From assembly GCA_963760735.1 (NCBI GenBank), contig CAVXEB010000004.1, positions 1,592,329 through 1,656,328 on the forward strand: 64,000 nucleotides of DNA, read 5' to 3'. Below the pieces are notes generated by a model. That model was given only the letters and a program-made list of their open reading frames with translations, searched no databases and had not been told where the DNA came from. The DNA is from an uncultured Chloroflexia bacterium (GTDB taxonomy: Bacteria > Chloroflexota > Limnocylindria > Limnocylindrales > CSP1-4). Positions within the stretch are counted from its first letter, which is position 1, and every line of letters begins with the position of its first letter. The translations under genes and the position numbers were made by a program. Shown here one piece after another: positions 5,340 to 20,934 of the stretch.

Positions 5340-6661
5340 TCGCCGCAACCAGAGGTGGGGACATGAACCGCCCGTTCAGACGATCTGCGTCGCCGATGGC
5401 AGCGGTGGTCGCGGTCGCTGCGATCCTGACAACCGCCTGCACTGGCGGGGCGGGCGTGGCCAGCGCGACCCCCGCAGCGACGCCTGGACCTACGGCTTCG
5501 CCGGCCCCGAGCGTGACCGCGCCTTCGGCCGCTCCGTCAACCAGCCCGAGCCCGGCGGCGACCCCGCTGATCTGGACCAAGGCGAGCCTGAAGGAGGATT
5601 GGCCGGCCCCGGTCCGCACCGAGCCCACCGGCCCCGCAACCATCGTGCCGATCAGCGACAGGTACCAGGATCCCACGAGCGACACCGAGTCCGGTGCGTT
5701 CCCTTGGACCGACATCCACGTGATCGGGTTCGGGCACAACAACGCCGTCGTGGTCTACGTCCCCGGGGCGCCCAACGTGGATCCGACCGAGCAGTGGATC
5801 GCCTACGGGGTCGTCGTGGATGACGACGGCGACGGCGTCGCGGACCGTCGATTCGGGATGGACAACATCCCAGGGCCCGCGGCGGAATTGCCACACCGGG
5901 CGTGGATCACCGACCTCCACACCGGTCGGACGGAGTCGTCGGTCCTGAACTCGCTTGACTACTTCGAGTCCCCGCAGGGGATCGTCAAGACGCCGATGGT
6001 CGGCGACACCTTCTTCGGCGCCTCCTTTCCGGCCAGGCAGACGGAGACCGACAAGGGCCCGTCCTGCTCACCGGCCCGTCACGCGGGCCCAAGCCATCCT
6101 TACGGCAACCCGCCGCCCTGGATGCGTGGGTTGGCCCCGGGAGAGCTCGAGTTCGGCGGGGGCGGAGACGTTGCCGGGAGCGCCGTTCAGAAGCAGAAGC
6201 CCGACACCAGGCCTGCCCGCTTCTACGCATGGGCATCGGTGATCGTCGATGGCCGGGTCATGGCCACCGATTTCGCCCCGGATGCGGGATGGCTGCATCC
6301 TTCGCCGAAGGCTCAACCGATCGAGGACGAGGTCGCCGTCGCTCCGCCAATCGACTCGCTCGACGAAGCCGTTGCCGCCGTTGGAGTGGTCGAGCCAGGC
6401 TTGACCGGCTTCCTGGCGACCGACACCAAGGTCCCCGGCGTGTCGGCCTGGATCGAGGCCGAGGCACGGGGCGGGGGCTGGGACATCACCTACGTGTGTG
6501 GTGACTCTCCGGACGGCGGCGCCAGCCACGTGGCAGCCGAGATCCACGTCCGCCGGAACGGGACCGTCGACGAGATCTGCGTCTGGCATGATCCGAGCGG
6601 GAACGACTACGCAGCTCCGGGGTACAGCCCGCCTGAAACCGAGGAGGCCGGCGCCTGTTGA
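5336..6661 (+). CDS. Secreted lipoprotein, function unknown
   Basis: ATGA overlap with the upstream gene. The signal peptide has a lipobox (AAILTTAC) and the mature protein is Asp/Gly-rich. The internal ATG at 5363 (MNRPF) is an alternative start. Confidence 0.5.
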   Translation: MIAATRGGDMNRPFRRSASPMAAVVAVAAILTTACTGGAGVASATPAATPGPTASPAPSVTAPSAAPSTSPSPAATPLIWTKASLKEDWPAPVRTEPTGPATIVPISDRYQDPTSDTESGAFPWTDIHVIGFGHNNAVVVYVPGAPNVDPTEQWIAYGVVVDDDGDGVADRRFGMDNIPGPAAELPHRAWITDLHTGRTESSVLNSLDYFESPQGIVKTPMVGDTFFGASFPARQTETDKGPSCSPARHAGPSHPYGNPPPWMRGLAPGELEFGGGGDVAGSAVQKQKPDTRPARFYAWASVIVDGRVMATDFAPDAGWLHPSPKAQPIEDEVAVAPPIDSLDEAVAAVGVVEPGLTGFLATDTKVPGVSAWIEAEARGGGWDITYVCGDSPDGGASHVAAEIHVRRNGTVDEICVWHDPSGNDYAAPGYSPPETEEAGAC

Positions 6662-6951
6662 GCGGCGTGCGACGGAAGTCGCCGAGCCGGGATCGATTCT
6701 GCGATGGGCGTGAGAATGGCTGCGCTCGCGATGGGAGCGACGAGGTCCAGCCCACCAATTGACATCATCGCGGGCTGGACGTGTTCCGGATGGTGCCGGA
6801 GATCGGCGTCGCGCTGCTCTGCCTGTCGATCGTGCCGATCACCGTTGGGATGCTGAAGCTCGAGGACCGAGTCAAACCACGATCTCGCGGAGTACCCCGG
6901 ATGGCGCCGTAGGTCCTCGGCCTTCCCGCCAGGCCCCGACGGCATCCGCGC

Positions 6952-7584
6952 TCAGGATTGCGCGACCGGCTGACGGATGATCGTCCGAAGCTTCTCGGGG
7001 GCACTCCGCCGCGGATCGCCGAGGTAGAGCTCGTGGTGCTTCTCCCGGCGGCCGTCGAACGTGTAGCCGAGCTCATGGATGAAGGCGTGCAGCCGCTCGA
7101 TCGTCGGGCCTTCGTCGCTGTACGGGCCGAGATACATGATCTGCGCCGCAAGCTCTTCCTCGAAGCCCGCCAGGCGTGCTCGGTCGACCGCCGCAAGCCC
7201 CTTCTTGCGGCGGACCTCGCCGCGGGCCCACTCGAAGCGGTCGAGGGTGACGACATCGGGTTGGGAGATCATCGCGGTCCAGTGCCAATTGGCTTTCCGC
7301 CCGGTAGCGAACTCGGCCATGTCGTCGGCCCACCACAGGCCCTCCAATGGCCCGACGCGGTAGGTGAGCCCGATCTCCTTCTTGATGGCGAACCCGAGGG
7401 TGTACGACAGGCCGAACAGCGCCTGGATCGCGCCCCGGTACTCGGTTGACGTGTTGGGGTCGCCCTCGCCGTCGATCTGGATGAACGTCAGCCTCGGCAC
7501 GCGCACCAGCTCAGGCGCCCGAGCCGCTTCGTACAGGCGGTCGATTGGGAGCTCGCGAACGGGAACCGCAGGAGCGGTCGTCAC
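6952..7584 (-). CDS. GyrI-like small-molecule-binding domain protein (AraC effector-binding / YdeE-like)
   Basis: Sequence pattern of GyrI-like domains, including ...RLTFIQIDGEGDP ... GPLEGLWW ... ISQPDVV ... YLGPYSDEGPT..., 210 aa. Confidence 0.65.
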   Translation of the reverse strand: MTTAPAVPVRELPIDRLYEAARAPELVRVPRLTFIQIDGEGDPNTSTEYRGAIQALFGLSYTLGFAIKKEIGLTYRVGPLEGLWWADDMAEFATGRKANWHWTAMISQPDVVTLDRFEWARGEVRRKKGLAAVDRARLAGFEEELAAQIMYLGPYSDEGPTIERLHAFIHELGYTFDGRREKHHELYLGDPRRSAPEKLRTIIRQPVAQS

Positions 7585-7641
7585 GGCACAACCACCTGCT
7601 TCATCTCCCCTCGCCTGACCATGCGTTCGACTTGATCGTAG

Positions 7642-8160
7642 TCAACGTGGGGCGAGCCTGGCCCCGCGGACGGCCAGGTATCCGAGCGCGACGAGGAGCG
7701 GGAGCTGGATGACCCGCAGCGTGATGCCCCACGTCTCGAACGGCGGCGTTCGGGTTGTAGAGACGTCCACGTACGCCCAGTAGACGAACACCTGGAAGAT
7801 CAGGCCCGCGACCCAGACCCAGCGTCGGTCGACGCCCACGAGCAGCACCGCGCCGAGCAGGAACGCGCCACCGGCCAGGGCCCCGAAGACCCACAGGAAG
7901 TCCCGGTCGCTGTCTGTCCCGCCGACGTTCAGCACGCCGAGGCCGATCAGGAAGTAGATGGCGGCCATGATCGCTGCCACGGCAGCCGCACCGTATCGGA
8001 TCGTCCGGCGAGATATACCCACGACGTCGGTCCTCCTTCGATTGGAGGTTGCCCGTGTCTCGGGTCTGGCACCAGTGCCGAACCGACCGTTCCTGCCGGT
8101 CCGTGTCGCTCCGAACACGCTGATCGCCGGCGCTCGATCGGTCATCTCAGGGCACAGCAT
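7642..8160 (-). CDS. Integral membrane protein (about 4 TM), function unknown; true start probably internal
   Basis: Hydrophobic helices AAVAAIMAAIYFLIGLGVL, WVFGALAGGAFLLGAVLLV, WVWVAGLIFQVFVYWAY and LPLLVALGYLAV. Confidence 0.35.
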   Translation of the reverse strand: MLCPEMTDRAPAISVFGATRTGRNGRFGTGARPETRATSNRRRTDVVGISRRTIRYGAAAVAAIMAAIYFLIGLGVLNVGGTDSDRDFLWVFGALAGGAFLLGAVLLVGVDRRWVWVAGLIFQVFVYWAYVDVSTTRTPPFETWGITLRVIQLPLLVALGYLAVRGARLAPR

Positions 8161-8385
8161 GACTGTTGTCGAGGGATGTCAGCCCAGGATCGCCGCTACG
8201 GCGCGATGAGTCTCCGACATGACCCAGGCACTCGAGTCTCGGCGTTTCCCGCGTCGCGGAAGACGTGCCGGCCTTTGTCCGCGCGACCGCTGACGAGCCA
8301 GCGGGTGGCCCCGACGGACGCCTTGGCCTGGCCTGGGTGATCGACAGCGCCCGTTCGGCCCTCCTTGAGCCGGTCTACCTTCAGC

Positions 8386-8793
8386 TCACGGGAGGATCCG
8401 GAAACGTCCGCCACTGAGCGGTCGCAGGACGTCGAAGTGCCGGCGATCGAGGGTCACGATGGTTCGCGTTCGGTAACGCTCGGCCAGGATCACGTTCGAA
8501 GCGTCCGCGACGCCGACGTTCTGGTCTGCATACCGCTCGATGACGGCGCAAGCCTGAACGAGCCCCTCGACATCGATCGCGGGTAGGTCCCATGCACCGC
8601 CGGTCAGCTCCCGCAGAACCGCCATCTCGGCCGAGACGCCGAGCCGAGACGCCACGAGGTAGTCGAGTTCGGCGACCACGTAGGGCGAAACCACGAGGGG
8701 CTCCGTCGCCCCGCCGAGAATGGCGGAAACCGTGTCGTGATCGGGCTCGTCGGTGTCGAAGAATGCGAGCAGCGCGCCGGTGTCGACGATCAC
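8386..8793 (-). CDS. vapC: PIN-domain ribonuclease toxin VapC
   Basis: MIVDTGALLAFFDTDEPDHD ... VVSPYVVAELDYL ... TIVTLDRRHF, with conserved acidic PIN residues; 4-nt overlap with the upstream antitoxin. Confidence 0.85.
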   Translation of the reverse strand: MIVDTGALLAFFDTDEPDHDTVSAILGGATEPLVVSPYVVAELDYLVASRLGVSAEMAVLRELTGGAWDLPAIDVEGLVQACAVIERYADQNVGVADASNVILAERYRTRTIVTLDRRHFDVLRPLSGGRFRILP

Positions 8794-9038
8794 CGCTCGC
8801 CGAACCCGCGCAGATGTTCGTCGGCCTCGCGCGCGATCGGAGCGCGGCTGGCGAACAGGCCACCGCGCGGGCGCGGTCGATCATTGCCGACCGCTTCGCG
8901 GATCGAGTCGCGAATGACCTCGGCCTCGGACACTCCCCGCTGCCGGGCAACGCGCTTGATCGCCGACTTGAGCTCCGTCGGCAAATAGATGGTCGTCTTG
9001 TCCACGCACGTATGGTACCACCGCTGGCGCTGGGCCAA
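8790..9038 (-). CDS. vapB: Ribbon-helix-helix (CopG-like) antitoxin VapB
   Basis: 82 aa. TIYLPTELKSAIKRVARQRGVSEAEVIRDSIRE forms an RHH. The gene overlaps vapC by 4 nt. Confidence 0.75.
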   Translation of the reverse strand: MAQRQRWYHTCVDKTTIYLPTELKSAIKRVARQRGVSEAEVIRDSIREAVGNDRPRPRGGLFASRAPIAREADEHLRGFGER

Positions 9039-9078
9039 CGTGGGCGATCGACTGTGTAGTGTGTTGCCTTGATCTGGT

Positions 9079-9125
9079 TGCGCTTCTGGGATCGACGCTG
9101 CGGGCCGCTCGCCTCCAATCCGACC
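9079..9125. repeat. About 45-nt repeat GGGATCGACGCTGCGGGCCGCT(C/A)GC(C/G)TCC(A/G)A(T/G)CCGACCCT(C/G)A, copy 1 (second copy at 15048-15094)
   Basis: Near-identical sequence found twice in the window, both in intergenic regions flanking the Kelch anti-sigma island. Confidence 0.6.
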
Positions 9126-9158
9126 CTCAGCACCCGAATCCTCAATAGGTCGGTCGGG

Positions 9159-9506
9159 TTACAGGCCCAGATGCAGGCGTAGGGCCTCATCGATGTCGAG
9201 CATGATTGCGTTCGGGACGACGCCCAGCCGGTCACCAACCCGCTCGACGGCAATCGAGCGGATCTGTTCAGCCTGCGCCTTGGAGTCGCGGTCGAGCCCC
9301 GCCTCGGTGGCTGGAAGCAGGACCTGGAACGGATAGACGCGCTCGACGTTCGATGTCACGGGAACCACCGTGATCACGCCGCGACCCAGTCGCCCCGCCG
9401 TCGCGTTGGCCGCGTCGTTGCTGACGATGACCGCTGGCCGGCGCTTGTTCGCCTCGGATCCGCGGGCAGGATCGAGATCGACGGAATGGATGTCGCCGCG
9501 CCGCAT
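9159..9506 (-). CDS. mazF: MazF/PemK-family endoribonuclease toxin
   Basis: MRRGDIHSVDLDPARGSEANKRRPAVIVSNDAAN ... VVPVTS is the classic MazF/PemK N-terminus. The ATG at 9506 overlaps the antitoxin stop (TGATG). Confidence 0.8.
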   Translation of the reverse strand: MRRGDIHSVDLDPARGSEANKRRPAVIVSNDAANATAGRLGRGVITVVPVTSNVERVYPFQVLLPATEAGLDRDSKAQAEQIRSIAVERVGDRLGVVPNAIMLDIDEALRLHLGL

Positions 9507-9727
9507 CACGACTTGAGTCCGTCGCCGGTCGTCGAATCCCAGAGGGTGCCATCGTCCTGGGCGGCCCACTCATCCCACGCCGCTTCGTATGTCCCGCCCA
9601 GCTCGGCCGTGCGCAGCAGGCGAACAGCTCGATGGAGCGCGGCCGATCTGGATTCCAGCCCCTGCTCCTTGGCGTATTCGTCGAGGAACTGGACGTCCTC
9701 GCCCGGGAGGCTGACACTGACTTTCAT
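9506..9727 (-). CDS. mazE: MazE-like antitoxin
   Basis: 73-aa acidic protein (MKVSVSLPGEDVQFLDEYAKEQG...) immediately upstream of and overlapping mazF. Confidence 0.6.
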   Translation of the reverse strand: MKVSVSLPGEDVQFLDEYAKEQGLESRSAALHRAVRLLRTAELGGTYEAAWDEWAAQDDGTLWDSTTGDGLKS

Positions 9728-9871
9728 ACTGAGATGCTACCACCGGTAGGGCTCGGGTGGCAATGCGGGTCTGCCCATGAGCGGAGTCGACACCCCAGTC
9801 CCGGCCCGGCACCATCGCCCTGATCTGGATAGGCGTGAATCAGCACGGTGGTTTCGTGCATCTATCGGGCG

Positions 9872-10426
9872 ATGGTGGCCATGACCGGAAGCACGACGGA
9901 GACCTCGGCGGGCCTGATGCGCCTCGCTGCGGATGGCGACGAGCTGGCCTTCGCGGGCATCGTGGACGCCCACCACGCCGACATGAGCAGTGTTTGCTTC
10001 GTCGTCACGGGTGGTGACGTCGAGCTCACCGAGGAGGCGGTCCAGTCTGCCTGGCCGATCGCCTGGCGGAAGCTGCACACGATCCGCGATCCCGAACGCC
10101 TTCGACCGTGGCTCATCTCGATCGCCGTCAACGAAGCCCGACAGCTGGCGCGTCGTCGACGGCGGGGTCGGGTGCTCGAAATCTCGGTCGCCCGCGATCC
10201 ATCCGCGGAAACCCCCTCGGATCCCGGCTCCCACGTCGGCGACATCGACCTCCGCAATGCCCTTGCCGGCATGAGCGCGGAGGACCGGGCGCTGATCGCC
10301 CTGCGATACGTCGCGGGATTCGATTCCACGGAGCTGGCGCGCGCTCTCCACATGAGTCCCTCCGGCACTCGCGCCCGATTGGCCCGATTGCTTGGCCGTC
10401 TTCGATCGGAGCTTGGCGATGGATGA
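9872..10426 (+). CDS. ECF sigma factor
   Basis: Region 2 (LISIAVNEARQLARRRRR) and region 4 (LIALRYVAGFDSTELARALHMSPSGTRARLAR) are present. The start is ambiguous among in-frame ATG 9872, ATG 9881 and ATG 9917. Confidence 0.8.
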   Translation: MVAMTGSTTETSAGLMRLAADGDELAFAGIVDAHHADMSSVCFVVTGGDVELTEEAVQSAWPIAWRKLHTIRDPERLRPWLISIAVNEARQLARRRRRGRVLEISVARDPSAETPSDPGSHVGDIDLRNALAGMSAEDRALIALRYVAGFDSTELARALHMSPSGTRARLARLLGRLRSELGDG

Positions 10427-13193
10427 CATGACCGCGTTCGAGGACCGGTTCGGGGAGCGCGTCCGGGCGTTCGCCACGAGCGGCGTGCAGTCGGTGGACT
10501 CTGCGGCCATTGCGCGAGGCGTGGCGGTCGGCCATCCCAAGAAGCCCGTCACCGGGCCGGCCAGGCGTCGGCTTCTGGACGACATTCATCGAGGCCGCCA
10601 GCGGCGCATCTTCAGAACCACACTGGCCGCGGCGGCGATCGTCGCGGCGGTCGCACTCGGTGGTGTGTTGGCGGTGATCGGGGGTCCGAGCCCGGCGCCG
10701 AGCGTGCATCCCAGCCCCAGCCTTCCTGGCGTCGTGCCTCCAAGTTCGACGCCCAGCGCGACAGCGCCGACCTCGTCCACGGTCGCGGCTCCGGGAGGGG
10801 TCTGGATCGCCACCGGGGCGATGGGAACGCCTCGCTCCGGCCACACCGCCGTCCGACTGCTGGATGGCCGGGTGCTCGTCGTGGGCGGCGCCAGCGGCGA
10901 TCCGGACAACGACACCTCCGCGGAGTTGTACGACCCGGTCACGGGGACCTGGTCGGCCACTGGAAGGATGGTCAGGACCCGGGGGGGTGGCTCCGCGTTC
11001 GCGGCCATGCGACTGCGCGATGGCAAGGTGCTTGCCGGGGATGACCAGGGCGCCGAGGTGTACGACCCGGATGACGGGACCTGGAAGGCCACCAAGACGA
11101 TGGCTCTCATCGATCCTGATGGGTCGAGCCACTGGGGCCGGGCCACGTTGCTGGACGATGGCAAGGCGCTCGTGGTCCACGACGGCGGCAGCTCCGAAGT
11201 CTACGACCCCGACAGCGGGACCTGGACCGCCACAGGGCAGCTGACACCGCCCGTGGACATCCCCACCCCGATCACGCTGCCCGACGGCAAGGTCCTCGTG
11301 GCCGGCGGGGAAGACACGACTCGCGATGGGGATCGGGCCGCCCTGTATGACCCGGCCACGGGCACCTGGGTCGCCACTGGAGCGATGGGGATGCCTCGAC
11401 TTGAACACCTCCTGGTATCGCTCCTCGATGGCCGTGTGCTCGTGGTGGGCGGCGCCAACGACGATCAACACGACACGTCCGCCGAGGTGTACGACCCGGC
11501 CACGGGGACCTGGTCCGCCACCGGGAGCATGCTCAACGCACACACCCGCTTCCCGGCCACCCTGTTGGGCGACGGCCGGGTGCTCGTCGGGGACGCCGCC
11601 GGCGCCGAGATCTACGACCCCGACAGCGGGACCTGGACGTTCACCGAGAAGATGGTCATGCCCACCGAGGGCTCCGCCACGTTGTTGTTCGATGGCACGG
11701 TCCTCGTGGCGGGTAGTGGGGGCTCGGCGGAGTTGTACATCCCTGCCGGCGCCTCGCCACCACCTGCGTTGCCGACTACCCCTGCGACCGGCGCCTGGAT
11801 CGCCACCGGGACGATGGGTACGCCTCGCTCCGGCCACACGTCGGTTCGGCTGCTTGATGGCCGGGTGCTCGTCGTGGGCGGCGGCAACGGCGACGTGAAC
11901 GACAGGTCCGCGGAGTTGTACGACCCGGCGACCGGGGCCTGGTCCGCCACCGGGAACACGGCCAAGCCCCCTGCGTGCTTCGACGCCACGCTGCTACGCG
12001 ACGGCAAGGTGCTTGTGGGGGATGTCGACGACCCGGACGCGGACCACCCGGTCCTCGGCGCCGAAGTGTACGACCCGGCAACCGGAACCTGGGCTTCCAC
12101 CGGGAAGATGGCCATCAGGGATGGTTGCTGGCTGTCCGCCACGCTCCTTCGCGACGGGAGGGTGCTCGTGACGGGTCGCGAGGGCTCCCAGCTGTACGAC
12201 CCGGACAGCGCGACCTGGGCTGCGACTGAGAGCATGATCGCTCGACCCGGCTTGATGGGGCGCCGCTTCGGCGCGGCCGTCCTGCTGCCCGATGGCCGCG
12301 TACTGATCGCGGGCGGTGGTACCGACAACCAGTACCTGGACACGGCCGAGCTGTACGATCCGGACACGGGGTCGTGGACCGCGATCGCGAACATGCACAG
12401 CCCCAAGGCTGGCCCCAGGGCCACGCTGATGCGCGACGGCAAGGTGCTCGTGATCGGCCGCTCCTCCTCGACGACCGCCGAGGTGTACGACCCGGCGACC
12501 GGGACGTGGACCGCCACCGGGGACTTCGCCAGAGCGGGCGTTCACTACGGATCGCTCACGCTATTGTCCGATGGCATGGTGCTCGTGGCGGACGACTACG
12601 GCGCCGAGCTGTACGACCCGGGCACCGGATCCTGGACCACCACCGGGTACCCGCTCCGGGGGCACGATGGTCCTCTGACGCTGCTCCTCGATGGCACCGT
12701 CCTCGCGGCGGGCGGCCGTGATTGCCTGAATGGGGGGTGTGTCGCAACGGGCTCAGCCGAGCTGTATGTGCCTGGCGGCGTGTCGCCGCCACCCGCTGTG
12801 GCGGCCCTCCCGATCCCGACCCAGACCCCGATCCCGACCGCGACTCCGAGCCCGACTCCGGTCCTACCCCAGGCGGGACCTGGCGGACGGCCCTGGAAGA
12901 TCCGGGTCAGCAACAGCAGCTCTCGACCCGCGACGTTGTTCGTCGCCGAGGAAAGCGATCAGGGCGTCATGGGGAAGCTCGTCGGGTCCGCGACCCCGAG
13001 TGTCGTGCCACCCGGCACCACCGTGGACGTGACCTTTCTCGTGCCCGCGACAGACACGGGTGGATGGTCGATCTTCGTGAACCCGCGACCAGGCACCGAC
13101 ACCGGAGGGGTGATCGGGTGGACCGTCTTTCCGCCGTCGGGCTCGATCCACATCAATGAGGAAGGGCTGTCCGGCTGGATGGGCGAGAGTTGA
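10419..13193 (+). CDS. Anti-sigma factor with two tandem six-bladed Kelch-repeat beta-propellers and a C-terminal beta-sandwich domain (about 925 aa)
   Basis: The gene overlaps the sigma stop (alternative start 10428). One TM helix is present (LAAAAIVAAVALGGVLAVIGG). Twelve Kelch-type blades of the form AE(L/V)YDPxTGTWxxTGxM...RxxHTAxLLxDGRVLVxGG are split into two approximately 330-aa halves. Confidence 0.75.
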   Translation: MDDMTAFEDRFGERVRAFATSGVQSVDSAAIARGVAVGHPKKPVTGPARRRLLDDIHRGRQRRIFRTTLAAAAIVAAVALGGVLAVIGGPSPAPSVHPSPSLPGVVPPSSTPSATAPTSSTVAAPGGVWIATGAMGTPRSGHTAVRLLDGRVLVVGGASGDPDNDTSAELYDPVTGTWSATGRMVRTRGGGSAFAAMRLRDGKVLAGDDQGAEVYDPDDGTWKATKTMALIDPDGSSHWGRATLLDDGKALVVHDGGSSEVYDPDSGTWTATGQLTPPVDIPTPITLPDGKVLVAGGEDTTRDGDRAALYDPATGTWVATGAMGMPRLEHLLVSLLDGRVLVVGGANDDQHDTSAEVYDPATGTWSATGSMLNAHTRFPATLLGDGRVLVGDAAGAEIYDPDSGTWTFTEKMVMPTEGSATLLFDGTVLVAGSGGSAELYIPAGASPPPALPTTPATGAWIATGTMGTPRSGHTSVRLLDGRVLVVGGGNGDVNDRSAELYDPATGAWSATGNTAKPPACFDATLLRDGKVLVGDVDDPDADHPVLGAEVYDPATGTWASTGKMAIRDGCWLSATLLRDGRVLVTGREGSQLYDPDSATWAATESMIARPGLMGRRFGAAVLLPDGRVLIAGGGTDNQYLDTAELYDPDTGSWTAIANMHSPKAGPRATLMRDGKVLVIGRSSSTTAEVYDPATGTWTATGDFARAGVHYGSLTLLSDGMVLVADDYGAELYDPGTGSWTTTGYPLRGHDGPLTLLLDGTVLAAGGRDCLNGGCVATGSAELYVPGGVSPPPAVAALPIPTQTPIPTATPSPTPVLPQAGPGGRPWKIRVSNSSSRPATLFVAEESDQGVMGKLVGSATPSVVPPGTTVDVTFLVPATDTGGWSIFVNPRPGTDTGGVIGWTVFPPSGSIHINEEGLSGWMGES

Positions 13194-13198
13194 TCGAT

Positions 13199-14617
13199 GT
13201 GAACCGCAGGTTCGCACCCGTCGTCGTGGTCGCTCTGCTAGTCATCGCCGGCTGTACGACCGGGCAACCGCCTGGGAGCGGGTCCGCTTCGCCGAGCCTG
13301 GCTGTGCCGAGCATGGCGTCCGTCCCGTCGTCGACCCCGACGAGCCCACCCAGCCCGGCAGCCAGCCCCGGAGTGGCCTCGATCTCCGATGGCCCGCTCG
13401 CCCCCGGCACCTACAGGATCCCGCAGTGGGACACGGGCTGCAGCGAGCACCAGCCAGGGTGCAGCCCGTCGCCCGCGCATGACGCCGTCCGCGTGACCCT
13501 CACCGTGCCCGGTGGCTGGGAGGGGATCGCGGGCACGATCTGGTTGGCCGAAAAGGGGAATGGGGCGCCCGACGGGGCCGGTCTGCTCGTCGGCAGGGGC
13601 GCCTGGCTGCTGACCGATGCGTGCACGAAGGCCGAACACGCGATCCCTCCGGATATCGAGGTCGGACCGAGTGTCGACGACTTCGCCAACGCCATCGCGG
13701 GTCATCCACTGCTCGATGCCTCGGATCCTGTCGACGTCACCCTTGCCGGATACGCCGGCAAGTACATCGACCTGCAGGTGCCGGCCGATCTCTCCAAGTG
13801 CGAGGTCTACCGTCCCTTCGATCCCGGGATCTACGCCCAGGGGCCGAGCCACCAGTGGCACCTCTGGATCCTCGACGTGGATGGCCTCCGCTTCGTGGTC
13901 CAGAGCACGGACTACCCAGGAACGTCGGCAAAGCACAAGACGCAGCTCAAAGCGATCGTGGATTCGATCAGGATCGACACTGGCGCGACGCCCGAGGTCC
14001 TCGGGGAGCGGCTGGCGGCCGGCACCCACACGGCGGCACCGTTCGACCCAGCGCTGCCCGACGCGTGGGGCGTCTGTGTTGGCCAGCCCGGCTGTTCGGA
14101 AGATCCCGCCGACGACTCGATCCGCATCACCTATACGGTGTCGGAGGGCTGGGCCTTCGGCTACGGGGCCGCGGTGACCAAACCGTCCGCGGGCACGGTC
14201 GCACCGAGCGGGATGAGCCTGCACTTCCTCCGTGGCGGGTGGCTGTTCAGCGACCCTTGCGTCACGACCGAAAGACCGCCGGACATCGAGGTCGGGCCGA
14301 CCGCCGACGACTTCGCCGACGCGCTCGCCGCCCATCCGCTCCTGGATGTCACGACGCCGGTCGATGTCAGGCTCGGTGGGTTCTCAGGGAAGTACCTCGA
14401 CCTCCAGGTGCCGGCTGACATCAGCGCCTGCGCCGAGTCCTACTACCCCTGGACGCCCGCCTTCTCTGCCCAGGGCCCGAACCATCGATGGCACATCTGG
14501 AACCTCGATGTCGACGGCGTCCGGGTCGTGATCCAGAGCGGAGACTTCGCAGGGACGCTACCGGAGAACCTCGTCGAGATGCACACAATCATCGAGTCCA
14601 TCCAGATCGAGCCCTGA
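13199..14617 (+). CDS. Secreted lipoprotein containing two tandem copies of an uncharacterised approximately 190-aa domain (paralogous to the ectodomain of anti-sigma 15738-16700)
   Basis: GTG 13199 gives MNRRFAPVVVVALLVIAGC with a lipobox; TTG 13190 is the alternative. The internal repeat spans DIEVGPSVDDFANAIAGHPLLD ... LQVPADLSKC ... WHLWILDVDGLRFVVQS and DIEVGPTADDFADALAAHPLLD ... LQVPADISAC ... WHIWNLDVDGVRVVIQS. Confidence 0.7.
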   Translation: MNRRFAPVVVVALLVIAGCTTGQPPGSGSASPSLAVPSMASVPSSTPTSPPSPAASPGVASISDGPLAPGTYRIPQWDTGCSEHQPGCSPSPAHDAVRVTLTVPGGWEGIAGTIWLAEKGNGAPDGAGLLVGRGAWLLTDACTKAEHAIPPDIEVGPSVDDFANAIAGHPLLDASDPVDVTLAGYAGKYIDLQVPADLSKCEVYRPFDPGIYAQGPSHQWHLWILDVDGLRFVVQSTDYPGTSAKHKTQLKAIVDSIRIDTGATPEVLGERLAAGTHTAAPFDPALPDAWGVCVGQPGCSEDPADDSIRITYTVSEGWAFGYGAAVTKPSAGTVAPSGMSLHFLRGGWLFSDPCVTTERPPDIEVGPTADDFADALAAHPLLDVTTPVDVRLGGFSGKYLDLQVPADISACAESYYPWTPAFSAQGPNHRWHIWNLDVDGVRVVIQSGDFAGTLPENLVEMHTIIESIQIEP

Positions 14618-14928
14618 CACGATTGGCTCGAGTGGCTCGCGCCGCTCGACGCGCGGGCCGGACGTGTGAGCGGTGTTGGTCGGACGCTCTCCTCGGCCAC
14701 CTGCCCGATGGCCGGCAGTGTCTGAGCCGCGGCCGCTGCGGACGGCTCACTCGGTTCGTCGATGGAACGGCCGTATTGAGCCGGAGCGAGTAGCCGTCGG
14801 CCTCGTTCGGGCGACCTCACGGTCATCAGCTACTCGAGCGTTGTGCCAGGCATTCGAGCGGAAGCGCAAGCGGGTTCGCCTCGGAGCACAGGGCTGATGC
14901 CTTTGTGCATCGGCTATTCTTGATCGGC

Positions 14929-14965
14929 GCCGACATAGCTCAGCGGTAGAGCAGCTGTTTCGTAA
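14929..14965 (+). repeat. 5' half of tRNA-Thr(CGT) (acceptor 5' strand through the anticodon loop, GCCGACATAGCTCAGCGGTAGAGCAGCTGTTTCGTAA); att-like remnant
   Basis: Identical to nt 1-37 of the intact tRNA at 21265. The identity breaks exactly in the anticodon loop and is followed by a 55-nt sequence identical to that after the 17663 copy. Confidence 0.8.
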
Positions 14966-15047
14966 GTCTCCCGCCCTGTGCGCAGTGCTACCCCGAGTGG
15001 CGGCCCGATACAAACGGGCACACTTATCAGCTATTCAATTCTTGGGG

Positions 15048-15094
15048 TGGTCCGCCTAGGATCGACGCTGCGGGCCGCTAGCGTCCGAGCCGAC
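15048..15094. repeat. About 45-nt repeat, copy 2 (see 9079-9125)
   Basis: GGATCGACGCTGCGGGCCGCTAGCGTCCGAGCCGACCCTGA matches 9079-9125 at about 85% identity. Confidence 0.6.
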
Positions 15095-15186
15095 CCTGAC
15101 TACCCGCACTGAACGATTCCGGCGCTCCGTACCCTCATGCTCGATAGACCGCGGTCGTCTCGACCACGGCTGATCGCCGGAGACCC

Positions 15187-15741
15187 ATGGACCGAGACCT
15201 CGTCGAGCGGGCGCGCTCGGGCGACCAGGCGGCATTCGAGGATCTGGTGCACCAGGTCAGCGACACGCTGTTCGGGATCGCTCGACGCATCCTGCGCGAT
15301 CCCGGCCTCGCCGAGGACGTTCTGCAGAACGCCCTTGTGACCATTTGGCGGAAGCTGCCGCATCTGCGGGAGCCAGACCGCTTCGAGGCATGGGCCTACC
15401 GGATCCTCGTCAACGCTTGCTACGCGGTTGCTCCGCACAACCGGAGATGGGCATCGACCGTGCGCGTTCTCCCAATCGATCGGGCGGACGACGTGGACGC
15501 TTACCAATCGATCTCCAATCGCGACGAGTTGGAGCAGGCTTTCCGCCGGCTACCGCTCGACCAGCGGGCGGTGTTCGTCCTCCACCACCACGTGGGCCTG
15601 CCCCTCGTGGCAGTGGCCGAGACGCTCGGCATCCCCGACGGAACCGCCCGCTCGCGACTGCACTACGCCACCCGCGCACTTCGGTCCGCTTTCGAGGCGG
15701 GCCGGGCGCCGATCAAGGTCCAGGAAGGGCGACTGTCATGA
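15187..15741 (+). CDS. ECF sigma factor
   Basis: MDRDLVERARSGDQAAFEDLVHQ ... ALVTIWRKLPHL ... VFVLHHHVGLPLVAVAETLGIPDGTARSRLHYA, 184 aa. Confidence 0.85.
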   Translation: MDRDLVERARSGDQAAFEDLVHQVSDTLFGIARRILRDPGLAEDVLQNALVTIWRKLPHLREPDRFEAWAYRILVNACYAVAPHNRRWASTVRVLPIDRADDVDAYQSISNRDELEQAFRRLPLDQRAVFVLHHHVGLPLVAVAETLGIPDGTARSRLHYATRALRSAFEAGRAPIKVQEGRLS

Positions 15742-16700
15742 GCGACGACCGAGCCTTCGAACGCGCCGTGGACGACTGGCTGGCAGACGGGTCCGACCGG
15801 ACCCCTCGGCCGGTGGTCGACGCCGTCTTCCTGGCCATCAAGACGACACCACAATCGCGGGATCTTCGGATTCCGTGGAGGACCCCACCCATGTCCGTTC
15901 CGCTGCGGCTCGCCGCCGGGATCGCGGTCGTCGCGATCGTCGGCTTCGCGGCCCTGACCGTCTTCACACCGGGCACCGGCCCCGGCTCCGGCCCGACGCC
16001 GGCGCCGTCGGCCACTCTCGCGCCGACCCCGTCACCGTCGCTCCTCCCCGCGGCTGGCGCCCTCGAACCGGGGACGTATGATTGGATTGCGTACTACACG
16101 CCCGTGGGGGGAGCGCGGTTCACCATCACCGTACCCGAGGGATGGGCGACGGCTGAGGGAGGAGTATTCGTCTATAGGAATCGCGTGGCCGCTGCGGCGA
16201 GCATGCCGCCGTTCACTGGATCTGGCGAGGTCCTACTCGCTATCTGGACCGTCAGCCATGTCTACACCGACGCCTGCCATCACGATGCGACGCTGGTCGA
16301 CGCCGGAACGACGATCGATGAGCTTGCGAGCTTGCTGGTGGCGCAGAAGGGCCGGGTCGCGTCGGCCGCCACCGACGTCACCCTGGGGGGCTTCCCGGCC
16401 AAGCGGATCGAGTTGACCGTCCCGGCCGACCTCGATGTCACGAAATGCGACGGGGGAATCATCAGGTTCTGGCCGGACCCGGGCCCGGATGAGTCCGGCG
16501 GCCTGTGCTGCAGTGCCGTCGGTTCGACCGATGTCGTCTATGTCGTCGACGTCGCCGGCGATCGCTTCGCCGTCGTTGCCAGGCATCAGGCGAGCAGCTC
16601 TGCCGAGGAGCTGGCCGAGCTCGAGGCCATCGTCGCTTCCATCAAGATCGAACCGCCGGCAACCAGTCCGTCCCCATCGGGCGCGTCCCCGTCTCCCTGA
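15738..16700 (+). CDS. Anti-sigma factor with one TM helix and an extracytoplasmic domain homologous to the lipoprotein 13199-14617 repeat
   Basis: ATGA overlap with the sigma stop. The TM helix is LAAGIAVVAIVGFAALTVF. The ectodomain (EPGTYDW ... TVPEGW ... DAC ... DVTLGGFPAKRIELTVPADLDVTKC ... VYVVDVAGDRFAVVARH) aligns with both repeats of the lipoprotein. Confidence 0.7.
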   Translation: MSDDRAFERAVDDWLADGSDRTPRPVVDAVFLAIKTTPQSRDLRIPWRTPPMSVPLRLAAGIAVVAIVGFAALTVFTPGTGPGSGPTPAPSATLAPTPSPSLLPAAGALEPGTYDWIAYYTPVGGARFTITVPEGWATAEGGVFVYRNRVAAAASMPPFTGSGEVLLAIWTVSHVYTDACHHDATLVDAGTTIDELASLLVAQKGRVASAATDVTLGGFPAKRIELTVPADLDVTKCDGGIIRFWPDPGPDESGGLCCSAVGSTDVVYVVDVAGDRFAVVARHQASSSAEELAELEAIVASIKIEPPATSPSPSGASPSP

Positions 16701-16826
16701 TCGGCCACACGACGCAAGGCACGCTTCAATCCGAGGGGGAGCCCGTGCTCCCCCCGGAAGGATTGGGGTCTCCAGAGTGACACCCGCTTACGCCACGTCG
16801 CCCTGACAAGTGCTACTATGTCGCAC

Positions 16827-17090
16827 ATGGAACGTGTCGGTGTGCGCGAGCTTCGGCGTCAGGCCAGTGCCATCCTGCGAAGAGTCGCCGCGGGCGAGAC
16901 GATCGAGGTCACTGATCGAGGACGTCCGGTCGCGGTCCTGCTGCGATCGATGCCAACCGGTCTGGCCAAGCTCGAGCGCGAAGGACTGCTGCGTCGCGCC
17001 GAGGCTGACCTGCTCGACCTCCCCACGGTCCAGCTGCCGGCCAATTCACCCGCTCCGTCCGACCTCGTGTCGAAGGCGCGGACGGATTGA
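16827..17090 (+). CDS. Phd/YefM-family antitoxin
   Basis: MERVGVRELRRQASAILRRVAAGETIEVTDRGRPVAVLL matches the Phd/YefM fold; it overlaps the downstream PIN toxin by 4 nt. The ORF track places the start at 16818 (MSHM...). Confidence 0.7.
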   Translation: MERVGVRELRRQASAILRRVAAGETIEVTDRGRPVAVLLRSMPTGLAKLEREGLLRRAEADLLDLPTVQLPANSPAPSDLVSKARTD

Positions 17091-17482
17091 AGGCCGTCTA
17101 TCTCGATAGCTCGGCGTTCGTCAAGCTGGTCGTCACCGAGGCGCAGTCGACCGAGCTCCGAGAATTCCTCGCGACGCACGAGGCTCGCCGCGTGTCGTCT
17201 TCCCTCCTCCGGGCCGAAGCCCTCCGAGCGGTCCGCCACCTGGGGCCTGACGCTCTCGCCATCGCCCGCGAGGGCCTTCGGCGTGTCGACCTGATCGCCA
17301 TCGACGATCGGATCCTCGATGCGGCCGGCATCCTCGAGCCTCGAATACTGCGCACGCTCGATGCCATCCATCTCGCGACCGCTCTGACGCTAGGTGACGA
17401 CCTCGACACGATCGTGACCTACGACGATCGGATGATCGAGGGGGCGGCGCTCATCGGGCTGGCCGCCGTCGCCCCGCGCTGA
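17087..17482 (+). CDS. vapC: PIN-domain toxin VapC
   Basis: MKAVYLDSSAFVKLVVTEAQS ... SSSLLRAEAL ... DAIHLATAL ... IVTYDDRM. Confidence 0.85.
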   Translation: MKAVYLDSSAFVKLVVTEAQSTELREFLATHEARRVSSSLLRAEALRAVRHLGPDALAIAREGLRRVDLIAIDDRILDAAGILEPRILRTLDAIHLATALTLGDDLDTIVTYDDRMIEGAALIGLAAVAPR

Positions 17483-17662
17483 TTGCGCCTAGATCGAACG
17501 GTCGTGCGGTTCGGGACCTCTCAAGGGTGCCCGACAGTCGTCGGCGTAGACACACTTATCAGCTGTTCGAGCGCTGTGCTACCGCTCTGAGCACGATCGC
17601 CGGCATGCTCCCGTGAGGGCGAATTGCCGCTGTGCGTTGAGCATCGGCTATTCTTGATCGGC

Positions 17663-17699
17663 GCCGACATAGCTCAGCGGTAGAGCAGCTGTTTCGTAA
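17663..17699 (+). repeat. Second copy of the 5' half of tRNA-Thr(CGT); att-like remnant
   Basis: It is identical to 14929-14965 and to nt 1-37 of the intact tRNA. It is embedded in an approximately 130-nt repeat (17642-17770 versus 14912-15036). Confidence 0.8.
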
Positions 17700-17870
17700 G
17701 TCTCCCGCCCTGTGCGCAGTGCTACCCCGAGTGGCGGCCCGATACAAACGGGCACACGTTTCAGCTATTCGGATTCAGGCACTGCCCGCCGCAGACGCAC
17801 GCTACGGCTGCGTCTTCCCGACACGACCCGGATGACCCTCCGCGATCCAACTGAACGCTCAACATCCCGT

Positions 17871-19052
17871 TCAAGAGCCGGAGACGGGGGCCCAGCTGTA
17901 CGTGCCATAGGTGGACGGTTCGTGGGTCACCTGGCCGATGAAGGCGCCGTCGAGATCCATGATCCAGAGGTCGTTGAGATCGCCGGCACCACGCTGGACG
18001 AGCAGATACTTCCCGTCCGGCGACCACTCGCCGACCTCGGCTTGGTCGGAGCCATCGGTCGCCGAGATTTCCTTCTGATCGCTGCCGTCGGGGCGGACCA
18101 GCGAGACCACGGACGTGCTCCCGTGCTTCCGCGAATAGGTGATCCACTCTCCGGTCGGAGACCACGACACCGCCCAGACAAAGTCCGCGCGCTCCGTGAT
18201 CGGTCGGGCCTCGCCGTCGTCGACGTCGACGTCGACGACGTAGATCCTGCCCTCGACGCCGAACGTCGCGCGCCTCCCATCCGGCGAGAGGCTGCCGACT
18301 GGCACGTCGAAGAAGTCGATCTTCGTGCCCGGCGGGTTGAGCTGGCGCAAGCCGCTGCCATCGGCGTTGACGACGTACACGTCGCCCGCCTCGTGCGGCT
18401 CGTCAGCACGTTCGGCCATGAACAGGATCTTCGACGCGCCCGGCGTGATCCCGAATGGATCGACATGGGCGATCCCCTCCGGAAGCGCGATCACGAGGCG
18501 GAGGTCGGCGAGGTCGGGGGATCCAAGGTACAGGCCGTTCCGAGCCGGCCGCGTATCATCCCAGCCGTCGAAGGCGATCCATCGACCATCTACGCTCGGC
18601 GTTGCCGGGCCAAGGGTGAGCGTCTTGATGGGTGGATCGATGACCGTGCGGTCAGCGCCATCCGGCCGCATCGTGGTGAACGACCAGGTGCCGTGCCCGG
18701 TGGAGCCCATCGTCCAGACGTGCGTCCCGTCCGTCGACCAACGGGCGCAGGCGCAGCCTTCGGCCGTGAAGAGCGCACGCTCATCCGTCCCGTCCGTGTT
18801 GATTGTGAAGTAGTGCTCCACCTGATCCGAGCCGCGACGATGGAACAGGATCCGGCCCGGCGGGACTTCGGCCGGGACCGCGGTCGCCGTGGGCTCGGGT
18901 GATGCGAGCGCCGTTCGACCAGGAGATGCCGGTGCAGTCGGCGAGGCGCCCGACCGAGCTGGGCCCGAGCCCTGGCAGGCCACCAACGACAGGGCAAGCA
19001 CCAGCCGCAAGCCTGCCCGTGGCCGACGAGTATTCACGACGTCGGCTGCCAA
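17871..19052 (-). CDS. Lipoprotein with PD40 / TolB-like beta-propeller repeats
   Basis: The signal peptide has lipobox LSLVAC. Repeated WSxDG(T/K) PD40 motifs are present (WSTDGTHVW, WSPTGEWITY, WSPDGKYLLV). The 5' end overlaps the upstream anti-sigma by 19 nt. Confidence 0.7.
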   Translation of the reverse strand: MAADVVNTRRPRAGLRLVLALSLVACQGSGPARSGASPTAPASPGRTALASPEPTATAVPAEVPPGRILFHRRGSDQVEHYFTINTDGTDERALFTAEGCACARWSTDGTHVWTMGSTGHGTWSFTTMRPDGADRTVIDPPIKTLTLGPATPSVDGRWIAFDGWDDTRPARNGLYLGSPDLADLRLVIALPEGIAHVDPFGITPGASKILFMAERADEPHEAGDVYVVNADGSGLRQLNPPGTKIDFFDVPVGSLSPDGRRATFGVEGRIYVVDVDVDDGEARPITERADFVWAVSWSPTGEWITYSRKHGSTSVVSLVRPDGSDQKEISATDGSDQAEVGEWSPDGKYLLVQRGAGDLNDLWIMDLDGAFIGQVTHEPSTYGTYSWAPVSGS

Positions 19053-20374
19053 AGCGCGTTGATCAGGAATTCGGTAACGGGAATCTTGCTATCTGGATCG
19101 TGGACCCACGCACAGGCCAAGCAGCCCGCTGCCGAGAGCTGGGCCACGTCCTCGACCGGCAGCTTGGCCTTGTTGGCGCCATCGGCATCCATGATCCAAA
19201 GCTCGAATCCCGTGGGCGCCGACGGATCGCCAACGCTGTGGGCGAAGACCAGGCGCCCATCTGCCGTCCAATTCGGTCGGCCAGAAGCGCGGTCGGTCGT
19301 CAAGGCCTGAAGACCGGTGCCGTCCGGGCGAATGGCGTAAATATCCCCGCCATGGGGAGTCTCACCGGGGGTCTCGCCGTAGAAGACGATCAGCGAGCCA
19401 TCCGGCGACCAGCGCGGCTCGATGGCATAGAGGTTCCGCGGGCCAATCTGATGCAGGTTGCTCCCATCAGCATTGACCATGAGGAGCGTCGCTTGGGAGG
19501 GACGGGCCGTCTGCCGAGCGAAGGTCAATCGGGTCCCGTCCGGCGACCAATGCGGCGCGTCATTGCGGTCGGAGGCCGTCGAGGCGAGCTCGGTGACGTG
19601 ACCGGTGGCCACGTCCACCAGGGCGATCACCGATCCCCCCGAGGTCGTGATGGGCGGCCGGGCGAACGCGATCGTGGCGCCGTCTGGCGAGAACTCGTAG
19701 CCCGAGACCGTGGGGCAGCCGATCGGGCACAAGACGTCAAATGGGAGCGACTGCAGGACGGCGCCCGACGCATCGGCCAGCCACAGTCCCGCGGCATCCT
19801 CGAAGAGCAGGCGGGTCCCATCACGTGACCACGAAAGGGGGGTCTGGTAACCGTGGTGGTCCGGCAGCAATTCGTGCGCATTGGTTCCATCCGTGTTCGA
19901 AACCCAGATCCGCGAGCATCCGGTGGGCCGCTGGTCGTCCCACCAACCCCTAGCTCCACGCTCACAGTCCGTGTCGACCGCCTCGAGTGGAACGAACTTC
20001 ACGTACGCGATCAGGCCCGAGGACGCAGGGGGCACTGAAGGGGCCTCCGACCGGAGTTCGGCGGATGGTTCGGTGGACGGATCCGCCGACCTGACAACGG
20101 ACGGCGGCACGACAGACGGCAACTTGACGATGCCGGACCCAGCGATGAGCGCCCCGCCCACGATCGCGCTGATCAATGCTGCGGCGACGAGCACGAGACT
20201 CGTCCGGCGACCGAACCTGGCCGGCCAGCGGCCGAACCAGCGGCGCTGCGGCACGAGGGGGATCGTCGCCAGGACGTGCTGGTAGAAGCGGTCTTCGTCT
20301 CCCAGGTCGGCAGCCCGCTCGCGGAGTCCTTGGGCGAGGTACGTATCGACGAGGTCGGGGTCGATGGTGGTCAT
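19034..20374 (-). CDS. Anti-sigma factor with one TM helix and an extracytoplasmic PD40/TolB-like beta-propeller
   Basis: 4-nt overlap with the ECF sigma 20371-20934. The TM helix is LVLVAAALISAIVGGALIAGSGI. PD40 motifs follow (WSRDGTRLLF, FSPDGATIAF, WSPDGTRLTF, WSPDGSLIVF). Confidence 0.7.
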   Translation of the reverse strand: MTTIDPDLVDTYLAQGLRERAADLGDEDRFYQHVLATIPLVPQRRWFGRWPARFGRRTSLVLVAAALISAIVGGALIAGSGIVKLPSVVPPSVVRSADPSTEPSAELRSEAPSVPPASSGLIAYVKFVPLEAVDTDCERGARGWWDDQRPTGCSRIWVSNTDGTNAHELLPDHHGYQTPLSWSRDGTRLLFEDAAGLWLADASGAVLQSLPFDVLCPIGCPTVSGYEFSPDGATIAFARPPITTSGGSVIALVDVATGHVTELASTASDRNDAPHWSPDGTRLTFARQTARPSQATLLMVNADGSNLHQIGPRNLYAIEPRWSPDGSLIVFYGETPGETPHGGDIYAIRPDGTGLQALTTDRASGRPNWTADGRLVFAHSVGDPSAPTGFELWIMDADGANKAKLPVEDVAQLSAAGCLACAWVHDPDSKIPVTEFLINALWQPTS

Positions 20375-20934
20375 GCCTGGGTCTCCAGCGCTCGTCCGAG
20401 CGCCTTTCGCGCGGCGTGGAGCCGTGACTTCGCGGTGCCGACGGGAATGCCGAGCTCCCGCGCGACCTGGTCCAGAGGGCGCTCCTCGAGATGGTGGAGG
20501 GCAAGGATCTGGCGATCGGCGATCGACAGGCGATCGAAGGCGGCCAGCACCGCGGCGCGCTCGAGCGCATGCGGCGCTGGATCCGCGGCTTGCAGAGCCG
20601 CTCCCTCGAGGTCGATCTCCCTTATGCGCCCACGCCTGCGCAGCAGATCACGGCAGCGGTTTGCGAGGATGGTGTTCAGCCACGCGTTGAACCGGCGCTC
20701 GTCACGAAGCCGCGGGAGGTTCTGCCAGGCCGAGACGAAGGCATCCTGGGTGGCATCCCGGGCGTCTGCCTCGTTCCTGACGATCGTGCGGGCGAGCCTG
20801 AGCAGGCCCGGCAGCCGGTCCGCCATCAGGAGGCCGAATGCGTCGGCGTCACCGCGCGCCGCTCGGGTGATGAGGACGTCATCGGCGACCGACGCCGCAT
20901 CGCGGGTGCCTCGGGTCAGGTCCAAGGCGCACAT
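20371..20934 (-). CDS. ECF sigma factor
   Basis: LITRAARGDADAFGLLMADR ... DATQDAFVSAWQNLPRL ... ILALHHLEERPLDQVARELGIPVGTAKSRLHAARK, 187 aa. Confidence 0.85.
   Translation of the reverse strand: MCALDLTRGTRDAASVADDVLITRAARGDADAFGLLMADRLPGLLRLARTIVRNEADARDATQDAFVSAWQNLPRLRDERRFNAWLNTILANRCRDLLRRRGRIREIDLEGAALQAADPAPHALERAAVLAAFDRLSIADRQILALHHLEERPLDQVARELGIPVGTAKSRLHAARKALGRALETQA

Follow-up and report, generated by a model that had tools for sequence, protein, structure and literature searches.

An unnamed PsbP/LpqN-like domain family in extracytoplasmic function sigma factor operons of soil Chloroflexota, carried by separate lipoproteins and by anti-sigma factor candidates

Two neighbouring extracytoplasmic function (ECF) sigma factor modules of an uncultured Chloroflexia bacterium encode the same exported domain in two arrangements. 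Within the 64-kb stretch of DNA that was analysed (hereafter the window), module 2 specifies a predicted lipoprotein with two tandem copies, and module 3 specifies an anti-sigma factor candidate in which a single copy forms the extracytoplasmic domain. The locus raises the question of whether the domain is functionally linked to ECF sigma/anti-sigma modules, as the initial annotation had proposed by a Rosetta-stone argument (the same part separate in one place and fused in another), or whether a common exported module lies in both by coincidence. In related soil Chloroflexota the domain is almost always associated with ECF operons, and a functional link between the domain and the ECF sigma/anti-sigma modules is well supported. 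The features of modules 2 and 3, with the domain copies designated d1, d2 and d3, are as follows (aa, amino acids; nt, nucleotides).

9848..10426, forward strand: module 2 ECF sigma gene (Sigma70_r2, E 6e-8; Sigma70_r4_2, E 2.5e-7; TIGR02937, 55 bits)
10419..13193, forward strand: module 2 Kelch anti-sigma candidate (Kelch_1, E 1.8e-50)
13190..14617, forward strand: module 2 lipoprotein with two tandem PsbP-like domains
13370-13990, forward strand: domain d1, aa 61-267 of the lipoprotein, first tandem copy
13991-14614, forward strand: domain d2, aa 268-475 of the lipoprotein, second tandem copy
14892..14915, forward strand: terminator-like hairpin with a T-rich tail between modules 2 and 3 (consensus scan, pattern match only)
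15187..15741, forward strand: module 3 ECF sigma gene (Sigma70_r2, E 6e-15; Sigma70_r4_2, E 1.3e-9; TIGR02937, 79 bits)
15738-16700, forward strand: module 3 anti-sigma candidate, 320 aa; module 3 has no lipoprotein
15738..15899, forward strand: predicted cytoplasmic N-terminal segment of this candidate, aa 1-54, with the motif DR...R..R.WL..G....P..V.DAV......TPQ.R...WR (consensus of 107 relatives)
15900..15968, forward strand: single transmembrane (TM) helix, aa ~55-77, VPLRLAAGIAVVAIVGFAALTVF, read from the sequence and preceded by Arg-rich sequence
16047..16655, forward strand: PsbP/LpqN-like extracytoplasmic domain d3, aa 104-306, with Cys180 (nt 16275-16277), Cys237 (nt 16446-16448) and GGLCC

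The products of 15187-15741 and 9848-10426 contain only sigma-70 regions 2 and 4, as expected of ECF sigma factors, and all matches lie above threshold (42.9 bits for TIGR02937, the sigma70-ECF model).

The domain of the module 3 protein is homologous to both copies in the lipoprotein. Residues 127-309 of the 15738-16700 product aligned with lipoprotein residues 101-267 at 31% identity (E 4e-17) and with residues 312-475 at 29% identity (E 2e-9), both under composition-based statistics, and d1 and d2 share 52% identity across 178 aa (E 2e-58, BLASTP). The alignments of d3 with d1 and d2 span the globular domain and leave the Pro/Ala/Ser linkers outside; similarity limited to Pro/Ala linkers, the weakness foreseen by the initial annotation itself, was thus not what was found. 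Its account of one domain occurring twice in the lipoprotein and once in the anti-sigma candidate agrees with the BLASTP and tblastn alignments, coordinates included, and its motifs (GTY, TVPxGW, DxC, DVTLxG..K..L.VP.D...C, W and DVxGxR.VV) were all seen in alignments A1 and A3. When each domain was compared with the whole 64-kb window by tblastn, no copy beyond d1, d2 and d3 was detected at E < 0.1. The two cysteines of the DAC...KC motif, already singled out in that annotation as conserved, were invariant in an alignment of 105 sequences (C180/C237 in the anti-sigma candidate, C145/C204 and C357/C414 in the lipoprotein) and, judging from sequence, probably form one disulfide. Lipoprotein-type members add a second cysteine pair within an N-terminal insertion (C...QPGC). 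A vicinal Cys-Cys (aa 254-255 in the window protein, GGLCC) is kept in many, not all, anti-sigma-type members, and the lipoprotein type lacks it; disulfides between adjacent cysteines are uncommon and can serve as redox switches.

No named family was found for the domain, as had been anticipated. Pfam and NCBIfam scans of the window proteins gave no match to it, a Pfam hmmscan of 105 relatives gave none at E <= 1, and the family profile matched no PDB sequence. Weak matches to DUF7537, LppK, CU044_5270 and T7SS_Rv3446c were rejected, lying on the signal-peptide, TM or linker region and far below cut-offs; PF26056, a precomputed label on two of 240 relatives, was not reproduced by hmmscan. The predicted fold, a central antiparallel beta-sheet packed by helices, is that of the PsbP/Mog1/LpqN-like superfamily. 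Structural relatives aligned over about 130 residues at 6-16% identity, and the Foldseek list was identical (scores at the end of each line).

3lyd, Jonesia protein of no known function, 11.1
4pws, Mycobacterium tuberculosis MTC28, 10.5
6e5d, LpqN, 9.9
2xb3, cyanobacterial PsbP, 9.6
5zxa, Apa, 7.9
6e8a, DcrB, 7.9
5yfg, Mog1, 7.5

These relatives are non-catalytic binding scaffolds. Because the domain has no sequence-library match but a PsbP/LpqN-like fold, it constitutes a new sequence family and not a new fold. LpqN, LpqT, Mtc28 and Apa (6e5d, 4pws, 5zx9), together with Jonesia 3lyd, are 13-16% identical to the domain, which differs from LpqN-type proteins in its length (~200 aa, of which ~130 aligned), its invariant cysteine pair and its tie to ECF sigma operons; we know of no such tie for an LpqN-type protein. 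No sequence relationship was detectable to PsbP/CyanoP, Mog1, DcrB or DUF1795 (PA0094 and the SciW/EagT6-type chaperones), and the contexts of the PsbP, Mog1 and DUF1795 relatives differ as well, being the photosystem II lumen, the Ran cycle and the chaperoning of type VI secretion effectors. A profile search of 1.84 billion cluster representatives (clusters at 50% identity) returned 5,191 proteins at E <= 1e-3, of which 3,065 reached E <= 1e-10; in many of the proteins the domain occurs two or three times.

Two forms dominate the 240 close relatives. One is about 260 aa long and consists of a signal peptide or lipobox followed by a single domain; the other, of about 310 aa, has a well-conserved N-terminal segment of about 55 aa (M..DRD..R..RSWLE.G....PDRVLDAVL.....TPQRR...WR), a TM helix and a single domain. 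A lipobox-like pattern is present in about 85 of 230 single-domain relatives, most of them about 260 aa long. Rarer fusions add an esterase domain or PD40 repeats.

The Rosetta-stone argument is supported as far as a functional link is concerned, although its original evidence was weak. It is comparative data that support the link; the pair in the window says little alone, because d3 is only distantly paralogous to d1/d2 (~30% identity) and the operons are independent, module 3 recurs as a 97%-identical copy (locus L070) in a different neighbourhood without module 2, and the terminator-like hairpin separates the two modules. These same facts favour the view that the domain is a common exported module of the lineage with no functional link to sigma factors, its presence in two neighbouring modules being coincidental. 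A genome scan with one genome per GTDB species, which yielded 67 loci, nearly all from Chloroflexota, with 87 domain copies, bears directly on this view. The scan used the lipoprotein-type alignment A2, which biases the loci toward lipoprotein-like sequences, yet many matches were anti-sigma fusions. The open reading frames (ORFs) of the loci were searched with a hidden Markov model of the domain and one of ECF sigma factors built from three sigma factors of the window, and the distances were measured, with the following distribution of copies.

37/87: no more than 700 nt from a same-strand sigma stop codon, the domain being on the protein directly after sigma
34/87: 0.7-4 kb downstream of a sigma gene
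1/87: more than 4 kb downstream of a sigma gene
7/87: less than 4 kb of upstream sequence to assess
8/87: no sigma gene found

A same-strand ECF sigma gene therefore lies within 4 kb upstream of 71 of the 87 copies (82%, or about 90% of those assessable), against an expectation from sigma gene density of about 12% (window, four sigma genes in 64 kb) to at most about 22% (the same loci). In three of the eight copies with no sigma gene (L028) a fragmented sigma gene lies directly upstream. Genes of the closest class that had an unambiguous ORF call overlap the sigma stop codon by 4 nt and encode a TM helix near aa 57. Coincidence is contradicted by this census, and also by the conservation of three-gene operons and by the occurrence of related parts in both fused and split form; we regard it as highly improbable.

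Copies farther from sigma belong for the most part to one of two conserved kinds of operon. The first, with the order sigma, Kelch anti-sigma and PsbP-like lipoprotein, was found at about 14 loci, at L001 and at L072, with gaps below 70 nt where the ORF starts are unambiguous. The second consists of sigma, a module 1-type anti-sigma, a lipoprotein like that of module 1 (lipo1) and a PsbP-like lipoprotein; in module 1-like operons elsewhere the PsbP-like domain is fused to the anti-sigma, encoded as an extra lipoprotein, or both. An assignment of d2 to module 1-type operons was dropped: among free lipoproteins that resemble d2, the closest one found (P0027, 85% identical) is encoded after a Kelch anti-sigma. 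Modules 1 and 4 of the window, with which these operons can be compared, are made up as follows.

~3640-4194, forward strand: module 1 ECF sigma gene
4191-5339, forward strand: module 1 anti-sigma candidate anti1, 382 aa
5336-6661, forward strand: module 1 lipoprotein lipo1, 441 aa
20371-20934, reverse strand: module 4 ECF sigma gene
19034-20374, reverse strand: module 4 anti-sigma candidate with a PD40/TolB-like ectodomain (Pfam PD40)
17871-19052, reverse strand: module 4 PD40/TolB-like lipoprotein (Pfam PD40)

Neither anti1 nor lipo1 has a Pfam match. Lipo1 has an extra C-terminal region of about 120 aa compared with a 280-aa relative.

Parts that are separate in one genome were found joined in others. 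At locus L045 an anti-sigma of 512 aa, itself ending in a PsbP-like domain, is followed by separate lipo1-like and PsbP-like lipoproteins; at L044 (788 aa) and L053 (774 aa) a single ORF begins like anti1 (N-terminus, TM helix and mid domain) and also contains a module resembling lipo1 and a PsbP domain resembling d2. Residues 1-347 of the fused ORF are 71% identical to the L045 anti-sigma, residues 345-573 are 51% identical to its lipo1-like lipoprotein, and residues 576-788 are 60% identical to its PsbP-like lipoprotein and 59% identical to d2 of the window. The genes of L045 correspond to one ORF at L044 and L053, whose d2-like domains are 59% and 54% identical, respectively, to the window d2. 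Anti1 of the window has neither of the added modules and lacks the C-terminal PsbP-like domain of its L045 relative. At least five loci (L045, L026, L037, L043 and L053) carry PsbP-like domains both on the anti-sigma and on a downstream lipoprotein of the same operon. Module 4 parallels this homotypic pairing with PD40 domains in place of PsbP-like ones, its anti-sigma ectodomain and downstream lipoprotein being weakly homologous (26% identity, E 1.6e-5). At L010 (4979-7615) a Kelch anti-sigma and a PsbP-like lipoprotein form one uninterrupted ORF of 878 aa with the lipobox kept at residue 629, which is either a further fusion or a stop-codon sequencing error.

The module 2 lipoprotein is the separate form of the domain in the window. 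It may start at TTG 13190, which overlaps the anti-sigma stop codon (TTGA), or at GTG 13199, the start used in the initial annotation. The 475-aa product has a signal peptide and the lipobox VIAG|C (MIDVNRRFAPVVVVALLVIAG|C), with Cys22 as the lipobox cysteine, in agreement with the pattern [LVI][ASTVI][GAS]C. The two-domain duplication is genuine and not an assembly artefact, because the same d1-d2 junction is spanned by P0001, a Joint Genome Institute metagenome protein with 86% identity to the lipoprotein. In an AlphaFold2 model of the two-domain protein both halves share the same secondary-structure pattern. The Kelch ORF upstream opens at 10392, and its likely start is ATG 10419, which overlaps the module 2 sigma stop codon. 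Its product begins with a short cytoplasmic segment and a single TM helix, beyond which come a large ectodomain of the Kelch beta-propeller type and a C-terminal region of about 130 aa (window 12800-13190). This last region, which follows the propellers, is kept in relatives at 50-93% identity and has no Pfam match. Its coding sequence ends up directly ahead of the lipoprotein gene, and it could be the contact site.

The module 3 protein is the fused form. Its start codon overlaps the stop codon of the ECF sigma gene by ATGA, so that it is encoded directly after sigma, and the same arrangement was seen in related loci. A single-pass topology with the N-terminus inside was called by a simple hydrophobicity rule rather than a dedicated predictor, with the TM helix near aa 57 recurring in relatives, and a Pro/Ala/Ser/Thr linker (aa 78-103) follows the helix. 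The TPQRR part of the N-terminal motif is common to the module 4 TolB/PD40-type anti-sigma (E 4.7e-6), which suggests that one cytoplasmic module may be combined with different ectodomains. Position, topology and this conserved N-terminal motif together make the protein a candidate anti-sigma factor that would bind the co-encoded sigma.

The two domain forms very probably work together in envelope signalling. On balance we think it probable that the domain is the binding module of an extracytoplasmic ECF sensor, acting in cis when it is part of the anti-sigma and in trans when it is a lipoprotein that works with an anti-sigma ectodomain. The module of about 200 aa would be exported, would serve in binding and would have a PsbP/Mog1/LpqN-like fold that a single disulfide probably stabilises; in Limnocylindria-type Chloroflexota it would be one of the parts with which ECF sigma/anti-sigma modules sense conditions outside the cytoplasm. 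For module 3 this means that sigma, translated together with the anti-sigma, would be bound by the cytoplasmic N-terminus of about 54 aa, and that the signal would reach the PsbP-like domain on the outer side of the membrane. The two-copy lipoprotein of module 2, translationally coupled to the Kelch anti-sigma, would be tethered to the same membrane face; like RseB or CseA, it may take part in sensing alongside the anti-sigma ectodomain or modulate it. Once a ligand or partner binds, the anti-sigma would be altered in stability or conformation and sigma set free.

Several observations weigh against this proposal. The structural relatives bind very different partners, proteins as well as lipids. 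The two-domain AlphaFold2 model is uninformative on contacts between d1 and d2 (predicted TM-score 0.64), with shallow coverage of d1, MAFFT having placed most single-domain relatives on d2. Some of the proteins encoded third in the operon have the domain fused to an esterase, as would suit an enzyme made as output and equipped with a binding module more than it would suit a regulator. The 15738-16700 product matches neither zf-HC2 nor RskA nor any other anti-sigma model of Pfam or NCBIfam, and its cytoplasmic part of about 54 aa has no Cys or His motif, such as the HxxxCxxC often present in class I anti-sigma domains; these domains average 101 aa and have four helices (PMC7406223). Because this short segment matches no anti-sigma model, sigma binding by it is inferred from position only.

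The last two observations would also fit a different reading of 15738-16700, namely that it encodes a membrane-anchored envelope protein of the sigma operon and that sigma is controlled otherwise. This we consider unlikely. A 4-nt overlap with the sigma gene is found in most loci that have an unambiguous ORF call, the N-in single-pass topology is conserved, and the cytoplasmic segment is well conserved, whereas a segment that served only for anchoring would not be. The N-terminal motif moreover occurs on proteins whose ectodomains are quite different, the PD40 type being one example, and a module that binds sigma should show just this distribution. Class II anti-sigma factors can be short, CnrY being an example, and segments below 50 aa were set aside as possible class II members in the classification of these domains (PMC7406223). 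A short, unclassified anti-sigma domain is thus possible for 15738-16700.

The esterase fusions point to a second reading, in which the domain binds an envelope or environmental substrate, which it senses when it is part of the anti-sigma, and the lipoproteins are outputs of the operon (binding proteins, chaperones or enzymes with this binding module) that neither touch nor regulate the anti-sigma, a shared-ligand logic like that of RsgI/SigI. In P0083 and at L071 the protein encoded third in a sigma/anti-sigma operon has two PsbP-like domains and an Esterase domain, and P0269 joins one PsbP-like match to an Esterase domain. Precedents also exist: the RsgI proteins of Clostridium thermocellum carry carbohydrate-binding (CBM), PA14 or glycoside hydrolase (GH) modules such as are found in the enzymes that they regulate (PMC6852018), and LpqN, a structural relative, is a lipid-binding lipoprotein that contacts the periplasmic domains of MmpL transporters (PMC8427324). 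Most lipoprotein-type members, however, consist of the domain alone without an enzyme part, and relatives of the free lipoproteins are built into the anti-sigma itself at L044 and L053, a finding more readily understood if these relatives belong to the sensor. We hold the shared-ligand logic to be a possible, though less probable, account; it is compatible with the co-sensor proposal, and the two are not mutually exclusive.

A more general scheme may be considered as a speculation that we rate as rather doubtful. In this three-part ECF design of Limnocylindria-type Chloroflexota an anti-sigma ectodomain and a co-translated lipoprotein would be drawn from one domain repertoire (PsbP-like, PD40, lipo1) and like would pair with like on the outer side of the membrane, the free lipoprotein acting as a co-receptor, decoy or competitor for the anti-sigma's sensor domain, and the trans form would be freely converted in evolution to a cis fusion. 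If true, like-with-like pairing would be a principle of ECF regulation not described so far, resting on an unnamed family of more than 5,000 clusters.

Modules 2 and 3 form part of a dense group of ECF modules. The window has a G+C content of 65-73%, and its closest relatives are soil metagenome-assembled genomes labelled Chloroflexota, 'uncultured Chloroflexia' or Candidatus Limnocylindrales. Four paralogous ECF sigma genes lie within its first 21 kb, their modules being packed into 17 kb (3640-20934), and the other 43 kb contain no further ECF sigma gene. Each of the four is followed by a gene for a single-pass membrane protein, and three of the four modules also have a downstream lipoprotein. 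The ectodomains of the anti-sigma candidates differ by module: an unnamed 'mid' domain in module 1, Kelch in module 2, PsbP-like in module 3 and PD40 in module 4. A simple pattern search for the ECF promoter pattern GGAAC-N-CGT found none upstream of the four sigma genes. Between modules 2 and 3, a degenerate tRNA-like sequence on the forward strand (14929-15005) scored 20.2 bits against the Rfam tRNA model (gathering score 29, E 0.15), and ARAGORN did not call it as a tRNA; a tRNA gene in decay and a leftover of an integration site are both possible origins. The modules are flanked by two toxin-antitoxin pairs of type II, one with a Phd/YefM antitoxin and a PIN (VapC-like) toxin and one with a ribbon-helix-helix antitoxin and a PemK/MazF toxin (16818-17482, forward strand; 8793-9569, reverse strand).

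Pairs of ECF sigma and anti-sigma factors make up the third principal mode by which bacteria transduce signals, and only a minority of them have a known signal. A large, uncharacterised extracytoplasmic family here gains a fold class and a genomic role, as a probable sensor-side ECF component in abundant uncultured soil Chloroflexota. From the split and fused arrangements, specific pairs of proteins can be chosen for interaction studies, and the family could be registered as a new Pfam family or as an anti-sigma sensor domain in the ECF hub.

Accessory modulators outside the cytoplasm are likewise encoded in the ECF sigma operons RpoE-RseA-RseB of Escherichia coli and sigE-cseA of Streptomyces coelicolor. 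RseB binds the periplasmic domain of RseA. Both RseB and CseA are unrelated in sequence to the domain described here and, to our knowledge, unrelated in fold, and for neither of them does a paralogous domain occur elsewhere in fusion with an anti-sigma. CseA, moreover, acts with a two-component system rather than with an anti-sigma; loss of this lipoprotein up-regulates the sigE promoter (PMC6767563). A literature search on anti-sigma factors with PsbP-like domains returned nothing relevant. The C. thermocellum SigI/RsgI system is similar in that multiple paralogous sigma/anti-sigma pairs occur per genome, and its single-pass RsgI anti-sigma factors have, at the C-terminus, extracellular binding modules that are interchangeable and of the same kinds as those in secreted proteins regulated together with them (PMC6852018, PMC10328401). 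It differs in that SigI is not an ECF sigma factor, that RsgI is built with an N-terminal domain of its own and with a periplasmic domain that is autoproteolytic, and that the RsgI modules (CBM, PA14 and GH) have known ligands, in contrast to the PsbP-like domain, whose putative partner is an operon-encoded lipoprotein. Systems that combine an ECF sigma factor with an accessory lipoprotein and a single-pass anti-sigma of modular ectodomain are already known, and no concept is overturned; what is new is an unnamed sensor-domain family of PsbP-like fold and its recurrent split and fused use in the ECF operons of a poorly studied phylum.

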